Shown here in pieces: positions 17,807 through 52,618 of a DNA stretch of 64,000 nucleotides. Position 1 is the stretch's first letter; each line of letters starts with the position of its first letter. Origin of the DNA: Flavobacteriales bacterium (lineage in GTDB: Bacteria > Bacteroidota > Bacteroidia > Palsa-965); assembly GCA_040377305.1 (NCBI GenBank), contig JBEIPA010000001.1:160001-224000 (forward strand). Reading direction: 5' to 3'. Under the pieces are notes generated by a model. The model saw only the letters and a program-made list of their open reading frames with translations, had not been told where the DNA came from and did not search any database. The position numbers and the translations under genes are program-made.

Positions 17807-17942
17807 AATGTGCTAATGTGTTAGATTGGAAATGTGCTAAAAGAGTATTCATTGAGTTGTGTCAAATTACCCATTTTCTAACCCTGAACAGCACTTTGCC
17901 GCGTCGTTTTAGCATATTAACACATTAGCAAATTAGCACATT
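17807..17942. repeat. Inverted pair of 8-bp tandem arrays (AATGTGCT-type, four periods each), no gene between
   Basis: aatgtgct-aatgtgtt-agattgga-aatgtgct (17807-17838) versus agcatatt-aacacatt-agcaaatt-agcacatt (17911-17942). Confidence 0.75.
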
Positions 17943-25592: not shown

Positions 25593-25681
25593 AATGTGCT
25601 AATATGTCAATCGGTTAATGTGCTAATCGAATATAAACGTATTTCTATCCGGTCATCTTATCATTCTATCATCCAATCATC
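25593..25681. repeat. Two degenerate 8-bp-period arrays (AATGTGCT-type and TCATCnnA-type)
   Basis: aatgtgct-aatatgtc-aatcggtt-aatgtgct (25593-25624); tcatctta-tcattcta-tcatccaa-tcatc (25653-25681). Confidence 0.55.
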
Positions 25682-28113: not shown

Positions 28114-28219
28114 GCCGGTTTTCGCAGTTATTCCAGCGCGAAGTTCATCGTTTTAACCGCGAACTTAGAACGGAGAACTTAGAACTTTTCCCGACCTTTG
28201 TGTTTCATTCCAATGTGAT

Positions 28220-30660: not shown

Positions 30661-32730
30661 ATGAAAAAATTATTATCACTAGTACTCCTCTTAGTTGCCG
30701 GCGTAGCATTCGCTCAGGCACCTCAGATGGTAAAGTACCAAGGTGTTGCGCGTGATGCTGCTGGTGCAGTAATCGCAAACGGCACGATCACTGTACAATT
30801 CGATGTTCACACTGGTTCTGCAGCGGGTCCTATCGCTTACACTGAAACACACGTAGGTGTTACGACTAACCAATTCGGTTTGTTTAGCATCAGCATGGGT
30901 TCTGTTTCTCCATTCCCTGCTAACCTTTTCGGAGCAGGTTCAGAATTCCTTGAAGTATCTGTCGACTTCGGTACTGGATTAACTTCAATGGGAACTTCAC
31001 AGTTCTTATCTGTTCCTTATGCATTGTTCGCTGATTCATCGGCTAATCCTGGTCCTCAGGGCCCTGCTGGTCCGCAAGGTCCATCTGGTGATCCTGGCGT
31101 TGCTGGTCCACAAGGTCCATCTGGCGATCCTGGTGTAGCTGGTCCGCAAGGTCCATCTGGCGATCCTGGTGTGGCTGGTCCGCAAGGTCCTGCTGGTGTA
31201 ACCGGTCCACAAGGTCCTTCTGGTGATCCTGGAGTAGCTGGTCCGCAAGGTCCTGCTGGTGTAACTGGTCCACAAGGTCCTTCCGGTGACCCTGGTGTAG
31301 CTGGTCCTACTGGTGCAGTTGGTCCTCAAGGTCCTACTGGTGCAGTTGGTCCTCAAGGTCCTGCTGGTGTTACTGGCGCTCAAGGTCCGGCTGGCGCAGT
31401 TGGCCCTCAAGGTCCTGCTGGTGTTACTGGCGCTCAAGGTCCTGCTGGTGCAGTTGGTCCGCAAGGTCCTGCTGGTGTTACTGGTGCTCAAGGTCCTGCT
31501 GGTGTTGCTGGTCCCCAAGGTCCAATTGGTCCTGCTGGTGCAGTTGGTGCTCAAGGTCCACAAGGTGTAGCGGGTCCTGTTGGTCCAGCTGGTGCAGTTG
31601 GTCCTCAAGGTGCTGCTGGTCCAACTGGTGCAACCGGTCTACTTACTAATGGTACAGGCGCTGGGCAAACAGCTTATTGGGATGGAACAAATTGGGTAAT
31701 CAACGGGAACATTTATAACAATGGTGCTAACGTTGGTATAAATACAGTTCCTTCTGTTAGTCGCAAACTGGATGTGTATTGGGTTCAACAGACAGCGACA
31801 GGTGATGGTCAAGCAACTATCTACGGTTACCGCACGCGTGATAACCAAAATGACGGAATTTCTTATGCGATAAATGGCGGACAAAGTGCAATGCAGGGAT
31901 ACAACTTCTGGGGTGATGTTTACACTTGGGGTGTAGCTGGCCACAACTACAACGACTATAACCGTACAGGCGGCGTACTTGGAGCTGATGTCAACGGCAC
32001 ATATTGGGGATCCCTCGGATACAGAAGTTCGGCTCTAATGAATTATGGTGTTTACGGATCTGCGGCTTATGCTAGCGGTGCTGGTCGCATGTCCAATGGC
32101 ATTCGCACTGGAATTGGTGGCGGTTTCTACGGTGACCTCATGGGTGGCTGGGTTCGTGGTGATATCATGGGTCTTACTACTATGGGATCTATGTACGCTG
32201 CATTCAATATCGGCAACACATTCAACACAGGTTTCCATGCTGACCTCGTAAACACTGGTGGTCGCGTTGTTCCTGCGTACGCAGTTACTTCGACAAAAGT
32301 GAAGTGCTATGATGACGGTTCTGCACAATTGAACAACGGAACAGTTCGCGTGAACTTCACTCCTGAGTATGCAGCGCTTATCAAAGGAAACGGCAAGCCA
32401 ACTGTAACTGTATCTGCAATGGGTATGTGCAACGGTCTTTACATCGTTTCTATCGATGAAGCAGGTTTCACAGTTGCAGAACTTGGTAACGGAACAAGCA
32501 ACGTTGAGTTCAGCTACATCGTAGTTGGTACTCGTGTTGATGCTGTTAACTCGACGGTTCCTTCTGAGCTTACAAATCCTGAATTCAGCGTGAAGATGAA
32601 AGCGGTAATGGGTAACGACGGAAATACTGAGCAGTCTGCTGCTCCAATGTTCTGGAACGGAACTACGCTCGAATACAATGCTGCTCCCGAGGCTCCAAAG
32701 CCTGCAAAAGTTGAAATGAATCGTAACTAA
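30661..32730 (+). CDS. Secreted collagen-like fibre protein (module A): conserved N-domain, 66 Gly-X-Y triplets, Gly/Tyr-rich tip; no T9SS CTD seen
   Basis: [29 protein letters not shown]-domain; uninterrupted GXY run 31051-31644. Confidence 0.9.
31051..31644 (+). repeat. Collagen-coding tandem repeat (36-, 54- and 63-bp higher-order units)
   Basis: [12 protein letters not shown] repeated, and [18 protein letters not shown] repeated; 66 triplets counted. Confidence 0.9.
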
Positions 32731-38227: not shown

Positions 38228-38260
38228 ACTGCTTACTACCCAACTGCCTACTGCCTACTG
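38228..38260. repeat. Solo 7-bp tandem array (CCTACTG-type)
   Basis: gactg-cttacta-cccaactg-cctactg-cctactg; short inverted partner cagtagacagttg at 38171-38183. Confidence 0.65.
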
Positions 38261-46844: not shown

Positions 46845-49160
46845 ATGTTGAGAATTCCGCTAGCTCTCATTTTTCTACTCTCATTTTCACTTTCTGCATG
46901 GTGCCAACCGGAACCTGTAAGAAAAGAAAAAGTGGGCGTTGTTTTGAGCGGCGGGGGCGCAAGCGGATTGGCACACATTGGCGTTCTGCGTTGTCTCGAA
47001 GAGAATGGTATTCCTATTGACTACATCTGTGGAACATCGATGGGTGCATTGATCGGTTCACTGTATTGTCAGGGTTACACTCCCGACGAAATTCAGGAAC
47101 TAATCGTGTCCGATGAATTCAACAGCTGGGCTAACGGAATCATCGAACCACAATACGTTTATTACTTCAAGAAAAAAGAAGACAACGCATCGTGGATCAC
47201 TTTCAAAATTTCTCCGGATACAACGTTAAGTACTAGTCTTCCAACGAATTTGATTTCTCCGTTGCCCATGGATTACGCGCTGATGGAGAGAACCGCTGGT
47301 GCATCTGCTGCATGCGGATATAATTTCGACAGTCTATTCTGCCCCTTCCGCTGCGTTGCTTCTGATGTTGCGAAAAAAGAATCCGTTGTTTTCCGTTCCG
47401 GCGATTTAGGTCAGGCGGTTCGCGCCTCAATGTCCTATCCGTTTTATCTGAAACCGATTCGTGTAAACGGCGCCCTGTTGTTCGATGGCGGATTGTACAA
47501 CAACTTTCCAAGCAATGTGATGTACCAGGACTTCTTTCCGGATTTCATCATCGGAAGTAATGTGGCTTCAGAATTTCCAGATCCGGATGAAGACAATCTT
47601 TTTTCTCAGGTTAGAGCAATGCTTACGAGCCCGACAGATTTCGAGCCGGTGTGTGAGAACGGTGTTATCATTGAACCCGATGCAGATTGGGCTGGGCTGT
47701 TCGACTTCGATCAGGCACAACGCTTGATTGACAGTGGATACGCAGCATGTAAACGAAAACTGGAAACCATTTGCGTTAACTTACAACACCGCGCCGATTC
47801 AGCCGATCTTGCTGCACGTCGCGCTGCTTTCAGAGCCAAGCAACCTCCGTTGGTATTCGACAACATCGAAATCGAAGGTCCGGGAATTAAAAAAGCGCAG
47901 GAGACGTACGTTCGCAAAATGCTTCGACATAACGAACGTTACGTGCCTAACAGCAAGTTGAAGACTGGATATTTTCGTCTCGCTGCGGATGATCAAATAC
48001 AATCCATCTATCCGCTTGCACGCTACAACACTTCCACAGGTTATTACGATTTGCGTTTGACGATCAGGAAAGAGAAAAATCTCTTCACGCAATTCGGCGG
48101 CAACTTTTCGAACCGACCCATAAACATGGGCTTCATTGGTATGCAATATAATTTCTTTGGTAATCCATCAGTGAGCATTAATGCAAATGGTTACTTCGGA
48201 AAACTGTATAGTGGTGCAATGGTAAAAGCGCGTTTCGATTTTCCGACGCGACTTCCGTTTTACATTGAACCATCATTCACCTGGAACCGTTTCGATTTCT
48301 ATAAGAGTACACCAACTTATTTTATTGACACCAAGCCGCCGTTCCTTGTGCACATTGATCGTATGGGTGAAATCTGTTTTGGAATGCCAATCAAGCGAAA
48401 GTCGCGACTCGTAGTTGGTTCTGGTGGTGGTTTCACCCGCTTCCTCTATTATCAGACTGATGCGTTTATATCCAGCGACACTTCCGACAGAACCGATCTC
48501 AATTATGTTTCGACCTATCTCCTGTTCGAACGCAATACACTCAACCGAAAACAATACGCGAGTGCAGGAACACACCTTGCATTCTGCGCGCGTTTTGTGC
48601 AGGCAGAAGAATTCTATGTGCCGGGAACAACTTCTCCTTTCATCGACGCATATCGTGCAATTCACAACTGGGTGCAGTTCAAAGCTTCTTACGACACGTA
48701 CTTCAAGGAGAAAGGCAAATGGAGACTCGGATTCCTGGGGGAAGTGGTGTACTCGTTCCAGCCATTCCTCAGTAACTATACCGCAAGTATTCTTTGTACG
48801 CCGGGGTTTCAGCCGACGCCCGACAGCAAAACACTATTCATTCCCACTTTACATGCTCACCAATATGGAGCAGCAGGATTGAAAAGCATATTCGTGATCT
48901 GGAAAAACGTCGATTGGCGGTTGGAGGGTTATGTTTTTGCTCCATATCAGGCGCTACGCGAAAAATCGGACCACACCGTTGAATATGCAGCACCACTTGC
49001 AATCGCAGACATGACCTACATCGGCATGACAGGACTTGTATGGCATTCTCCGCTCGGTCCGGTGAGTGCAAGCGTTAACTACTACAGCAGTCGTGAGGAA
49101 CCACTCAGCTTCCTGATTCACTTCGGGTATATTATCTTCAATAAGAAAGCGCTGGAATAA
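46845..49160 (+). CDS. Patatin-like phospholipase + POTRA-like + beta-barrel (PlpD/type Vd-like)
   Basis: LSGGGASG, GTSMG, DGG; C-terminal amphipathic strands ending SPLGPVS..FGYIIF. Confidence 0.88.
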   Translation: MLRIPLALIFLLSFSLSAWCQPEPVRKEKVGVVLSGGGASGLAHIGVLRCLEENGIPIDYICGTSMGALIGSLYCQGYTPDEIQELIVSDEFNSWANGIIEPQYVYYFKKKEDNASWITFKISPDTTLSTSLPTNLISPLPMDYALMERTAGASAACGYNFDSLFCPFRCVASDVAKKESVVFRSGDLGQAVRASMSYPFYLKPIRVNGALLFDGGLYNNFPSNVMYQDFFPDFIIGSNVASEFPDPDEDNLFSQVRAMLTSPTDFEPVCENGVIIEPDADWAGLFDFDQAQRLIDSGYAACKRKLETICVNLQHRADSADLAARRAAFRAKQPPLVFDNIEIEGPGIKKAQETYVRKMLRHNERYVPNSKLKTGYFRLAADDQIQSIYPLARYNTSTGYYDLRLTIRKEKNLFTQFGGNFSNRPINMGFIGMQYNFFGNPSVSINANGYFGKLYSGAMVKARFDFPTRLPFYIEPSFTWNRFDFYKSTPTYFIDTKPPFLVHIDRMGEICFGMPIKRKSRLVVGSGGGFTRFLYYQTDAFISSDTSDRTDLNYVSTYLLFERNTLNRKQYASAGTHLAFCARFVQAEEFYVPGTTSPFIDAYRAIHNWVQFKASYDTYFKEKGKWRLGFLGEVVYSFQPFLSNYTASILCTPGFQPTPDSKTLFIPTLHAHQYGAAGLKSIFVIWKNVDWRLEGYVFAPYQALREKSDHTVEYAAPLAIADMTYIGMTGLVWHSPLGPVSASVNYYSSREEPLSFLIHFGYIIFNKKALE

Positions 49161-49246
49161 AATGTATTCTCACCGGGCAATGAACGTCGGGAAATGCGAA
49201 CTGATAATCCTACAGAATTTCTCTGATCGGTAACGTTCGGATTCGA

Positions 49247-49921
49247 TCAGAAAAAAAGCTCCGTGAAAATTGAAATTACCAACGCAGCAATCAACGCACA
49301 GATCACGAACACAATAGTCAGCAAGCCAATGCCAGCAGCTGCAATGCCTTTGTTCTTCACAACTGTTTCATCTTTCGGCTGCTTAACTACAGGCTCGCGC
49401 GGATAGAGAAACGAAGCGAGCATGATGCAGAGAATACAACAGACAAATGCACCAACGATAAACACTCCAACTGGTGGTGCCGTTCCTTTGATGAACAAAC
49501 CGGCCATTGCAACAAGAAAAAAAATTGCACCAGCTACACCGGCACCAACCGCCTGATTCTTGTCTTTCTTGATTGGTGCAGGTGACTTTGATTTTTCTGA
49601 ATGTACCAGAACTTCTTCCGGTGTTTCCTGTTCGCTCTTCCCTGCAACAACATTCGGCAAGGCGCGATCTGCAGTCAGAGAAAGTTCATCTTGCTCCTTC
49701 GCGATTACTACTGTTGACGTCGTATCCGAGACGCGCAGAATTCGCGTTAGTAATGTCTGCGCTGCTGTGGGTTCATGTACCGAAGCAACTTCCGATTTCT
49801 CAGGTACATTTCGATTCCGGTCAACGTAAAATCCATCACGGTAATGTCGTTTCTCAATAGTGCAGGAAGTTAATCCCACAATGAGCAGTAGAACAATTCC
49901 GAAAATGAATTTCCCTCTCAT
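49247..49921 (-). CDS. Hypothetical lipoprotein-like membrane protein
   Basis: Lipobox LTSC followed by TIEKRHYRDGFYV; three C-terminal hydrophobic helices. Confidence 0.7.
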   Translation of the reverse strand: MRGKFIFGIVLLLIVGLTSCTIEKRHYRDGFYVDRNRNVPEKSEVASVHEPTAAQTLLTRILRVSDTTSTVVIAKEQDELSLTADRALPNVVAGKSEQETPEEVLVHSEKSKSPAPIKKDKNQAVGAGVAGAIFFLVAMAGLFIKGTAPPVGVFIVGAFVCCILCIMLASFLYPREPVVKQPKDETVVKNKGIAAAGIGLLTIVFVICALIAALVISIFTELFF

Positions 49922-49965
49922 GCGGTAAATTTTACTCCTGCCTTACTACTGTAGTCTGTCGTCAC

Positions 49966-50286
49966 TTACGCCATTCCCTTCGTGTTCCCGAAGTTCATCG
50001 GAAATGCACTCGAGAATTCTGTGTCATTGATCGGACCATTCGCACTTTCAAAGCGTGTGATGTTTTCTTTCAACGCCTTCATCAAACGCTTTGCATGCTG
50101 TGGTGTAAGTATGATGCGCGACTTCACGCGTGCTTTGGGTACGCCCGGCATTACCTGGATGAAATCAAGTATGAACTCAGAATTTGAGTGAGTGATAATT
50201 GCGAGATTGGAATAAGTTCCGCCTGCAACGTCTTCTCCGAGCTCAATATTCATTTGCTGTTGTTGCGGTTGTTCTTCGTTTGCCAT
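49966..50286 (-). CDS. DUF3467 family protein
   Basis: GTYSNLAIITHS.SEFILDF..MPGVPKARVKSRIILTPQHAKRL. Confidence 0.9.
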   Translation of the reverse strand: MANEEQPQQQQMNIELGEDVAGGTYSNLAIITHSNSEFILDFIQVMPGVPKARVKSRIILTPQHAKRLMKALKENITRFESANGPINDTEFSSAFPMNFGNTKGMA

Positions 50287-50320
50287 GTTAGTGCTTTTTA
50301 GTGTCCCGAAGATAGTGAAA

Positions 50321-50363
50321 CAGTAGGCAGTAGTGCAGTAGTGCAGTAGTGCGGTAGGCAGTC
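50321..50363. repeat. Left tandem array of 7-8 bp units (CAGTAGG/CAGTAGTG)
   Basis: cagtagg-cagtagtg-cagtagtg-cagtagtg-cggtagg-cagtc. Confidence 0.85.
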
Positions 50364-50518
50364 AAAAAAGTGGAGAATGGGAATTAACTGGTAAATCGCT
50401 GAAATTCAATGCGATTATCCGTTTACAAACGTTTACAATCACTTACAACCGACTACAAATGTTTATTACCCGACTATTCAATTGCCACTGAAATAGGTTT
50501 GCGGAAAAATCAAACTCT

Positions 50519-50899
50519 ATGGCACAAATTAAAGGTTACCGCTCGCTTATTGCTTATCAGAAGTCATTCGCAATGGGAACAGCAATTTTTAAACTGACTG
50601 AAAATTTTCCAAAGGATGAGCAATTTGAACTCACCAGTCAAATCCGCAGATCGTCACGTTCTGTGGGAGCTAATCTTGTAGAAGGCTACCGCAAGCGCAA
50701 GTATCCCAAAATGTTTCTTAATAAATTAAATACCTCTGACGGCGAATGTTCCGAAACAATTTACTGGTTGGAAGTAGCGCTTGCATGTGAATACATTTCC
50801 CAAACAGAATTCGAAAAGTATGAATCAATCCTGGATGAAGTCGGAGCTTTACTCGGATCGATGATCAAAGCACCAGAGAAGTTCGCTCCTCGCTCGTAA
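50519..50899 (+). CDS. Four-helix-bundle protein (TIGR02436 / 23S rRNA-IVP-like)
   Basis: YRSLIAYQKS, FPKDEQFELTSQIRRSSRSVGANLVEG, GECSETIYWL. Confidence 0.92.
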   Translation: MAQIKGYRSLIAYQKSFAMGTAIFKLTENFPKDEQFELTSQIRRSSRSVGANLVEGYRKRKYPKMFLNKLNTSDGECSETIYWLEVALACEYISQTEFEKYESILDEVGALLGSMIKAPEKFAPRS

Positions 50900-50908
50900 A
50901 CTTATCCT

Positions 50909-50966
50909 GACTGCCAACTGCGCTACGGCACTACTGCCTACTGCACTACTTCCTTACTGCCTACTG
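50909..50966. repeat. Right tandem array, inverted relative to 50321-50363
   Basis: gactg-ccaactg-cgctacgg-cactactg-cctactg-cactactt-ccttactg-cctactg. Confidence 0.85.
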
Positions 50967-51172
50967 AACAGGAGGAATCCGACGGCAGCGTGCGGTCCTC
51001 CTTGGTTTGTTCACAATAATTGTCGGTGAAAAAGTACTATCCTCCCGGGATGTTTTCCCCCTCTGAGTGATATTCCGGTATTGGGTTACCGATTAAGATG
51101 GCAGACCATCACAATATCAGAGACCCGGGCGGATAGCAATACAAATGTAAATTCACCTTTTTTGCCAGTCAA

Positions 51173-51240
51173 CCCGTATTACTACGGGATTTTTACCCCC
51201 GTATTTATACGGTATTTCACCCCCGTATTTCTACGGTATT
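51173..51240. promoter_or_regulatory. Three tandem palindromic sites CCGTA-N4-TACGG (24-25 bp period), putative operator array
   Basis: cccgtattactacgggatt, cccgtatttatacggtatt, cccgtatttctacggtatt at 51173, 51198 and 51222. Confidence 0.55.
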
Positions 51241-51356
51241 CCGCTGTTAACCTACTGATAAAGAAGGCATTCTGCGATTCACATAAAATGGGGATACACC
51301 ATTCTACGTAAAGGCACGATTGTCGTACTTTCCTCGCTACAACCAAAAACAATCGT

Positions 51357-51608
51357 ATGAAATTCAGAGTCAACCACACAATCTCCAACCCACAAGAGTT
51401 CTGGGGACGCGCACAAAAGGCATTGCCGAATCTTCCTGAAGGAATTAAGATTCATGTTGTGCTGCCAAACGAAACAATGGATACAGCAACTTGTGTTTGG
51501 GAAGCTGCGGATCTTGCAACAATCACTGCGTTCCTTGAAGGAGCAACCGGAGATGTAAGCAAGAATGATTACATGATAATCAACGAAGCGAATGCGATGG
51601 GTGTTTAA
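51357..51608 (+). CDS. Small hypothetical alpha/beta protein (83 aa)
   Basis: A-rich translation initiation region; globular pattern HTI..FW..ATCVWEA. Confidence 0.7.
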   Translation: MKFRVNHTISNPQEFWGRAQKALPNLPEGIKIHVVLPNETMDTATCVWEAADLATITAFLEGATGDVSKNDYMIINEANAMGV

Positions 51609-51709
51609 CCCGATACTACAAGAAAGGCTTCCGTCTCTGTGAATAGTTGAGTGGTGATTCGATGTTACTCCTGCTCTTCTCCGGCGACGTGAAGCCTTTA
51701 TCTTGCAAA

Positions 51710-52618
51710 CTACTTTTTACGTTTGAAATTTCCCGGTTTGTTCCTCGGCTTATTTCCGTCGAATTTGCCCTTCGGCTTATCACTTCCCGCCTTACCGGGC
51801 TTATGACCTCCAGGTTTTCCCTTTCCGGATGCACTTCCTTTCGGCTTGCCACTCCACTTGCGGGATTGTGTAACCACCTTCTTCTCCTTACCTGCACTCT
51901 CTTCCGATTTTTCAATCGATTTGAAAATTCCGCGCATCTCATCCGGAGTAAGATCACGCCAGTCACCTTGTGGTAATCCTTTCAAAGTAATGTTCATGAT
52001 ACGCACGCGCTCGAGCTTCACAACTTCGTAACCGAAATACTCGCACATGCGACGAATCTGCCGGTTCAATCCTTGTACAAGTATGATTCGAAAAATATTA
52101 GGTGTCTCTTTTTTGATCACACATTTCTTCGTGCGTTGACCAAGAATCGGCACACCCGCACCCATGCCGCTGATGAAATCGTCCGTGATCGGCTTGTTGA
52201 CCGTTACCACATATTCTTTCTCGTGATTATTCGAAGCACGGAGAATCTTATTCACGATATCACCATCGCTCGTGAGGAAAATTAATCCCTGTGAATCTTT
52301 GTCTAGTCGTCCAATCGGAAAAACGCGACGACTGTGATTAACGAAGTCAATGATGTTCGTGCGATCTCCTAATTCAGTTGTACTCGTCACACCCGGCGGC
52401 TTATTCAGTACAATGTAAATCTGCTGAGACTTCTCCATCGGCTCCAGCGCATTTCCATTGACGTGCACCACATCACCGGGATTAACCTGGTCGCCAATTT
52501 TCGCACGCTTGCCGTTGATCTTGACGTTGCCTTGTTCAATGAATCGATCAGCTTCGCGACGGGAGCAAACTCCAGATTCAGCAATAAACTTATTAAGACG
52601 AACTGCTTGTGACATCAT
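51710..52618 (-). CDS. rluF: 23S rRNA pseudouridine(2604) synthase
   Basis: S4 domain [47 protein letters not shown]; basic tail. Confidence 0.9.

Follow-up and report, generated by a model that had tools for sequence, protein, structure and literature searches.

The locus at positions 50,321 to 50,966 of the window (the whole stretch of 64,000 nucleotides that was analysed) raises the question of why a single small gene, with no recombinase of its own, should be enclosed by inverted arrays of a 7-8-bp repeat, and whether the gene and its arrays form a mobile or a regulatory unit. The left arm (50321..50362, + strand) contains six CAGT-type units at 7/8-bp spacing, which start at 50321, 50328, 50336, 50344, 50352 (as CGGT) and 50359. 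The right arm (50909..50966, - strand) contains eight units of the same word and starts at 50909/50910, 10 bp past the TAA stop at 50897-50899. Between them lies a four-helix-bundle gene of 126 aa (TIGR02436 / PF05635; 50519..50899, + strand), assigned from HMM matches and its predicted fold. A preliminary description of this DNA had inverted arrays bracketing one such gene, and this was confirmed for both arrays and the ORF at their positions; searching for inverted chains (at least 4 units, at most 700 bp apart) gave 4 overlapping word-hits in the window and no comparable pair in any of 30 shuffles of it. The left and right arms pair best over 27-30 nt, with 86-93% complementarity and in several registers.

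The cassette is flanked by a DUF3467 gene (49966..50286, - strand; ORF and profile match) on one side, and by a hypothetical gene preceding rluF on the other. The -7 consensus in Bacteroidota is TAnnTTTG. A candidate -7 box of the cassette's own gene, TAGGTTTG (50494..50501, + strand), can be read from the sequence, and the candidate -7 box of the DUF3467 gene, TATCTTCG (50307..50314, - strand), lies 6 bp outside the left arm and is kept in relatives that do not have the cassette. No Rfam match was found across 49000-52500, and the cassette is not inside an rRNA gene. Four contig sets compared at the cassette, as contigs only, contained no clean empty allele and no inversion, and the short opposite-strand joints seen in contigs are accounted for by other arm pairs. 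A 24-bp tandem repeat of 2.8 copies at 51173-51240 in the window, which recurs at the orthologous position of G015 and at C56:55738-55832 of G000 (G000 denotes this genome and the other G numbers the comparison genomes), is a separate repeat family, and a collagen-like Gly-X-Y coding repeat lies at 31066-31639. The locus is real and is ordinary within its class; it is the class itself that is unexplained.

The cassette protein scores 108 bits against TIGR02436 (cut-off 24) and 112 bits against PF05635 (cut-off 33.8). Its structure was predicted with a pLDDT of 95.4, and the best structural matches to the predicted fold are 2GSC and 2RLD (TM 0.73-0.85), which have five chains each. Avd, a pentameric nucleic-acid binder, is a weaker match (4DWL and 8UB7; TM about 0.77-0.79, identity 12-13%). 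The likeness to Avd that had been pointed out earlier therefore stands for the shared fold but not for membership of the Avd family, as both Avd HMMs score under their cut-offs (NF033474 39.3, cut-off 80; PF22296 36, cut-off 40) and there is no RVT_1 match in this 99.99% complete genome. There is also no Y1_Tnp match in the protein, and no nuclease or transposase fold among the Foldseek matches with E <= 0.001. The S23p protein of Xanthomonas is described as a homopentamer in the relevant section of PMC4990558, and by analogy with it and with the five chains of 2GSC and 2RLD the cassette protein would probably be a pentamer too. Twelve polar residues are invariant in its clade (E34, Q41, R43, S45, N52, E55, R58, R60, D74, E76, E79 and T80). 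Comparison with the G015 orthologue gives a dN of 0.12 with dS saturated, which indicates strong purifying selection; the G015 copy is 82-84% identical against a median of 79.5% for matched genes, in a single genome pair and with dS saturated.

Upstream of the gene, at 50417..50477 (+ strand), there is an operator-like leader motif which is 10-bp-periodic, has the core CCGTTTACAAACGTTT and is distinct from the arms. The degenerate units noted previously at about 50441-50490 are not copies of the arms, since this region is occupied by the separate palindrome-derived motif. The exact pattern has 43 matches in G000 (palindromic ones counted twice); the motif occurs in 10 of 23 genomes searched, is confined to genus g1, and is often a perfect palindrome located 50-150 bp upstream of genes. 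It precedes three of the nine four-helix-bundle genes, six of ten Y1 transposase genes, three of eight GxxExxY genes and a DUF559 gene. Twenty other neighbours were scanned, 13 with Pfam hits, and these include two ssb genes, an integrase, UvrD and PIF1 helicases, HsdM, UPF0102 and a proofreading-type exonuclease. The motif is absent from the 270 bp upstream of recA, and a classical SOS box is thus without support. From its neighbours the motif would appear to be the operator of a DNA-metabolism regulon, and it marks a candidate DNA-stress regulon.

Nine TIGR02436 genes are encoded in this genome, and the same nine were recovered by a six-frame search with a wider profile. By eye, inverted arrays of 6-8-bp units can be made out at eight of them, with no word used twice, and an automatic test detected at least three units on both sides at six of the nine. 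Such arrays are not confined to these genes: about 730 arrays of period 7-8 are present genome-wide, against 16 in a shuffle, and for 237 of 747 arrays an inverted partner lies no more than 3 kb away (18 in the control), at a distance of at most 150 bp in 190 of the 237. The arrays sort into some 15-19 word families, several of which have no resident TIGR02436 gene bearing their word, and the largest, with 106 arrays, is that of the cassette's CAGT word. An anchored scan for CAGT arms found 90, seven of them inside ORFs, and none in a shuffle. The typical arm (70/90) is 33-34 bp long and has five units, fixed ends (outer CAGTAGGCAGT, inner GGCAGTC), fixed core words and free middle linkers; with six and eight units, the arms of the cassette are longer than is usual for the family. 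Five units were also present in 74 of the 124 CAGT arms of this genome given by a looser count, and in 22 of 43 arms within 1.5 Mb of G015. Over 11 family definitions the unit number peaked at five in 6 and at four in 5, depending on the core chosen. Four more periodic arms, belonging to four different word families, lie in the window at 17909-17942, 25653-25681, 28161-28187 and 38228-38260; the last is a solo five-unit CAGT arm (38228..38260, - strand) just upstream of a -7-like box.

The two arms had been suggested to pair into a register-slipping stem around the gene. The arms of a pair share 26.8 matches compared with 27.3 +/- 0.3 for shuffled pairs (n=19 pairs; 485/500 shuffles at least as good), so that although the RNA can fold, two arms of one pair complement each other no better than arms of the family taken at random, which argues against the stem as a functional structure. 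Since there is no pair-specific complementarity, and the words are fixed while the linkers are free, selection acts on words and spacing, as for a binding site, and not on pairing. The spacers of empty pairs are 7 to 232 nt long. Seventeen spacers of the CAGT family have no sequence in common except for nested palindromes and terminator-like hairpins, nor is any of them similar to the interior of the filled copy; the empty pairs are therefore not fresh deletion copies of the cassette. Among 99 spacers from all families the only true copies are one tandem triplication, and recent whole-element copying was not seen. Target duplications, which the preliminary description proposed to look for in close relatives, are at chance level (at least 4 nt in 1/19 pairs, against 4.5% in controls), and there is none at a clean empty site in another clade. 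Derivation as a MITE was considered and rejected, as there is no target duplication, no common internal sequence and no descent from a filled copy. The arms are best read as candidate binding arrays, an earlier suggestion that is indirectly supported by the way the word tracks the protein clade and by the five-unit mode, and the evidence is against a functional stem or a simple MITE. At C50:1868-2300, and from C46:191700 onward, empty pairs have been amplified into tandem series that repeat about every 170 bp and resemble BIME clusters.

The preliminary description had asked whether other four-helix-bundle genes carry such arms, and they do: inverted chains of at least three units were found at 81 of 124 four-helix-bundle loci compared with 1 of 150 control genes. 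Furthermore, the word goes with the protein. Chains of the CAG word flank the gene on either side, with the same polarity, at 85/113 homologues with at least 40% identity and at 0/57 more distant ones, and across 37 distant loci the words are more alike where the proteins are more alike (rho 0.23 between word similarity and protein identity; 0/999 permutations), with P values that overstate the case because the genomes are kin. Loci with less than 200 bp upstream, less than 100 bp downstream or less than 75 aa aligned were left out of the flank and word counts, as were duplicates and one G012 locus.

Ten of 23 genomes of the order have a close homologue of the cassette gene, and five of these contain 5-154 GCAGT-array matches; of the 13 genomes without one, only G012 (92% complete) has more than one GCAGT match (19). 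The other five close homologues carry variant arms, and three of the variant words were searched across the genomes. That of G008 has 41 matches in G008 and 0 in the 22 other genomes, and that of G024 has 121 matches in G024 and one elsewhere, with a reversed control that was uninformative. The G010 word occurs only in its own two arms, under a strict 27-base pattern. The variant word of the resident gene thus predicts dispersed arrays in two of three tests. Because gene and arms are physically linked, co-inheritance alone would give the coupling of word and clade at the cassette, but dispersed copies of the resident word are not explained in this way.

Comparison between genomes demonstrates gain, loss and relocation. 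At the DUF3467 site the sister genome G015 has both flanks and neither arms nor gene, and G013 has at the same position an empty inverted pair of another 7-base word. G015 carries a gene 82-84% identical elsewhere, with homologous arm, leader and gene, and the G000 site orthologous to that G015 cassette is occupied by an empty pair of a 6-bp variant word. The earlier view of gene plus arms as a discrete unit without its own recombinase is upheld by this absence at one site of G015 and presence at another. Of the G015 cassettes examined, 4/5 are at sites which are gene-less in G000 and one is at the same site; similarly, 5/6 cassettes of G007 could be placed by their two flanks at sites of G000 that have no gene, and one of these sites is empty, 3 bp long and free of duplication. 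In many relatives the DUF3467 gene comes after rpoC, but it has another upstream neighbour in G000 and its closest kin, and the gap upstream of DUF3467 holds unrelated arrays in several genomes. Empty arm pairs also lie between apparent tRNA genes at C7:88874-88957 and 96423-96975, and G015 has a different word at the first of these sites.

The same gaps are used repeatedly. In a comparison covering 1.5 of the 5.1 Mb of G015, with an orthology filter passed by 645 of 1760 ORFs, 402 orthologous gaps of G000 and G015 had arrays in both genomes in 35 cases, in one only in 37 and 38, and in neither in 292 (odds ratio 7.3). A periodic 4-mer is common to both arrays in 16 of the 35 (6.4 expected) and in 19 there is none; some single arms have been exchanged in register with both flanks kept. 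Permissive gaps could account for this re-use as well as targeting. Within gaps, the placement of arms is precise. A -7-like box lies within 10 nt of the outer end of 32/90 arms, compared with 9/90 at the inner side and 7.6% of random non-ORF positions, and where an arm faces a gene end, 30/35 lie -13 to +10 nt from that end and 16 supply a TAG stop, a count that may include spurious ORFs but with which all seven cases at conserved genes agree. That arms sit so tightly against -7 boxes and against the start and stop codons of genes may be due to loss of flanking DNA up to the limit tolerated by selection. Arrays are equally common between divergent (16/56) and convergent (15/43) genes, so many are probably not transcribed.

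Two other gene groups of this genome are potential partners. Ten Y1_Tnp (RAYT-like) genes are present in G000 with palindromic flanks, and by eye no CAGT arm was found in their 170-bp flanks. REPIN-like elements of the Y1 genes nest in the spacers of periodic-arm pairs, and in G015 such elements occupy the same gaps. Eight GxxExxY (PDDEXK_3) genes, at C19:138063, C60:144503, C10:136888, C11:48941, C10:11419, C53:26580, C50:74808 and C56:73231, mostly lie between inverted periodic arrays of 9-10-bp units. Each has a word of its own, and copies without a gene exist as well, so that these genes form a parallel system whose cargo is a nuclease. As a cognate autonomous partner, both were rejected on their flanks, which carry palindromes (Y1) and 9-10-bp arrays (GxxExxY), and not the CAGT word.

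On balance, we consider it somewhat probable that the cassette is a gene-carrying copy of a family of gene-less arms, that its predicted five-subunit ring binds the five CAGT words as a specificity factor, and that cutting is performed in trans. Gene-less CAGT arms fill about a hundred intergenic gaps of the genome, and the ring would bind an arm with one word per subunit. The arm would probably be bound as a single strand, since a period of 7-8 bp does not keep the sites on one face of B-DNA. Acting as the likely specificity factor, the protein would allow arms and cassette to be maintained, moved and overwritten. As the genome gave no sign of a reverse transcriptase and the protein does not have the fold of a known nuclease, the cutting would be the work of a nuclease or HUH transposase encoded elsewhere, for which the RAYT-like Y1 and GxxExxY genes are candidates; several of both have the leader motif in common with the cassette. 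The unit boundaries, the gain, loss and relocation, the coupling of word and clade, the five-unit mode and the lack of target duplication and of pair-specific complementarity are directly supported. Several findings weigh against the reading, namely the G010 word confined to its own two arms, the GCAGT matches of G012 although it has no close homologue, the array families that lack a resident gene, the family definitions that peak at four units, and the empty spacers, which give no sign of recent whole-element copying.

The same placement could reflect host regulation, in which the protein adjusts expression by binding arms as RNA or DNA near stops, starts and promoters and regulates its own gene through the arms beside it, while recombination or gene conversion spreads the arms passively and selection on regulation retains them. 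The closeness of -7-like boxes to outer ends and of arms to gene ends, where they often provide the TAG stop, is what such a role would produce, as is the purifying selection on the gene, and a translational role is proposed for the Beggiatoaceae TAACTGA repeats in the account given by PMC4679880. We nevertheless regard regulation as unlikely, because the same gap has unrelated words in sister genomes (the 19 of 35 above) or none, which a gene-specific regulon would not tolerate, because arrays at divergent gaps, many probably untranscribed, are as common as at convergent ones, and because the cassette itself relocates. It is quite unlikely that the element matters only as a structure, in the manner of a misplaced rRNA intervening sequence, with the arms acting as a hairpin (RNase III substrate or cruciform) and the gene as a passenger. 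The cassette RNA does fold with its arms paired (z -3.77, 0/20 shuffles equally stable), and the Coxiella intervening sequence, as summarised in PMC4990558, combines the same gene family with a terminal stem, heptamers and RNase III excision. Complementarity is however not pair-specific and 45/90 CAGT arms have no partner within 700 bp; the cassette gene is divergent from DUF3467 and no transcript is known to span both arms, and neither the word-clade coupling nor purifying selection is expected for a passenger.

A further possibility, and a very unlikely one, is that the protein is itself the catalyst, or like Avd partners a reverse transcriptase, and that arms are written into DNA via RNA. 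The many invariant polar residues, the fold in common with the Avd of DGR reverse-transcriptase complexes and the replacement of arms in register with retained flanks would suit it, set against the missing RVT_1 match in the genome, scores below the Avd cut-offs and Foldseek matches, at the threshold used, that include no nuclease or transposase. That the arrays are ordinary slippage microsatellites which flank the gene by chance is scarcely credible. One low-depth contig of a relative lacks an 8-bp unit at 50346, and long perfect runs exist in some genomes, as slippage would give; the stereotyped 33-34 bp five-unit arm with fixed ends and heterogeneous linkers is not what such repeats look like, and chance does not account for arms at most loci of the family and almost none at control genes, nor for the word-clade coupling. 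The microsatellite label of the preliminary description was therefore dropped.

A wider proposal can be made, which we put forward tentatively and think more doubtful than not. S23p proteins would be the word-reading subunits of undescribed, phylum-spanning intragenomic replicators, in which pentameric rings wrap five-word single-stranded arms and pass them to an enzyme used by all, a nuclease or HUH transposase controlled by a common DNA-stress operator, paralogues compete to overwrite the same intergenic slots, and rRNA intervening sequences and bacterial heptamer repeats are products. An orphan protein family with solved structures would thereby be tied to the unexplained 7-8-bp repeats of many bacteria, and the nine paralogues with different words in one genome form a built-in specificity panel. 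If true, a small ring protein would carry a code for recognising words that can be reprogrammed, and DNA near promoters and stop codons would be rewritten at about one intergenic gap in five (72/402 orthologous gaps). New here are the sites that are reciprocally filled and empty, the counts of overwritten slots, the negative outcome for complementarity within pairs, the resident-word predictions and the common leader motif. Within the literature covered, which lies outside subscription journals, no paper was found tying the TIGR02436/PF05635 family to periodic inverted arms outside rRNA. A preprint may deal with 'tandem inverted repeats' with associated small genes, and searches aimed at it did not find it. 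The link between the four-helix bundle and periodic arms is thus probably, though not certainly, new in print.

Several known systems resemble the cassette in part. The S23p intervening sequences in 23S rRNA of Coxiella and Leptospira have a PF05635 ORF, terminal inverted repeats and heptameric direct repeats beside the ORF, with no mobility enzyme known according to the overview in PMC4990558. A PF05635 ORF between terminal inverted repeats is common to both, but the cassette is in a chromosomal intergenic gap, has a candidate promoter of its own, is under purifying selection and is accompanied by about a hundred gene-less arms. The heptamer repeats of Xanthomonas (GGGAATC) and Nostoc (PMC4692102) and of Beggiatoaceae (TAACTGA; PMC4679880) are, in the passages that describe them, likewise short intergenic arrays that lie near or overlap stop codons or are just upstream of genes, and frequently two of them converge as an inverted pair (two Xanthomonas genomes have 70 and 75 such cases); the roles these papers put forward there are G-quadruplex or translational ones, and 'helix bundle' occurs 0 times in the main text of either. 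Avd has the same fold and differs in its low identity (12-13%), in the family cut-offs and in the reverse transcriptase, none being found in this genome. MITEs are similarly non-autonomous, with inverted termini and many dispersed copies, whereas the cassette has no target duplication or common internal sequence, and its copies do not derive from a filled element. Transposase genes with inverted flanks are treated in PMC3733652, where the cargo as described is different.

The closest parallel is with REPIN-RAYT systems. As far as they are outlined in the sources cited here, these also consist of inverted doublets outside genes, whose spacer varies and of which a genome has many copies and several families, with a single cognate gene flanked by its own repeat and orphan repeats after gene loss. 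Where the gap is conserved, their repeats 'may be overwritten' (10.1101/2024.10.14.618302), and once the cognate gene is missing they decay (10.1101/2021.07.10.451892). They differ from the cassette in that its cognate gene encodes a four-helix bundle and not an HUH tyrosine transposase, its arms are direct periodic five-unit arrays and not palindromes (REPs), and its cognate gene changes site. By this analogy the system is best read as REPIN-RAYT-like, with a non-catalytic pentamer as the likely specificity factor.
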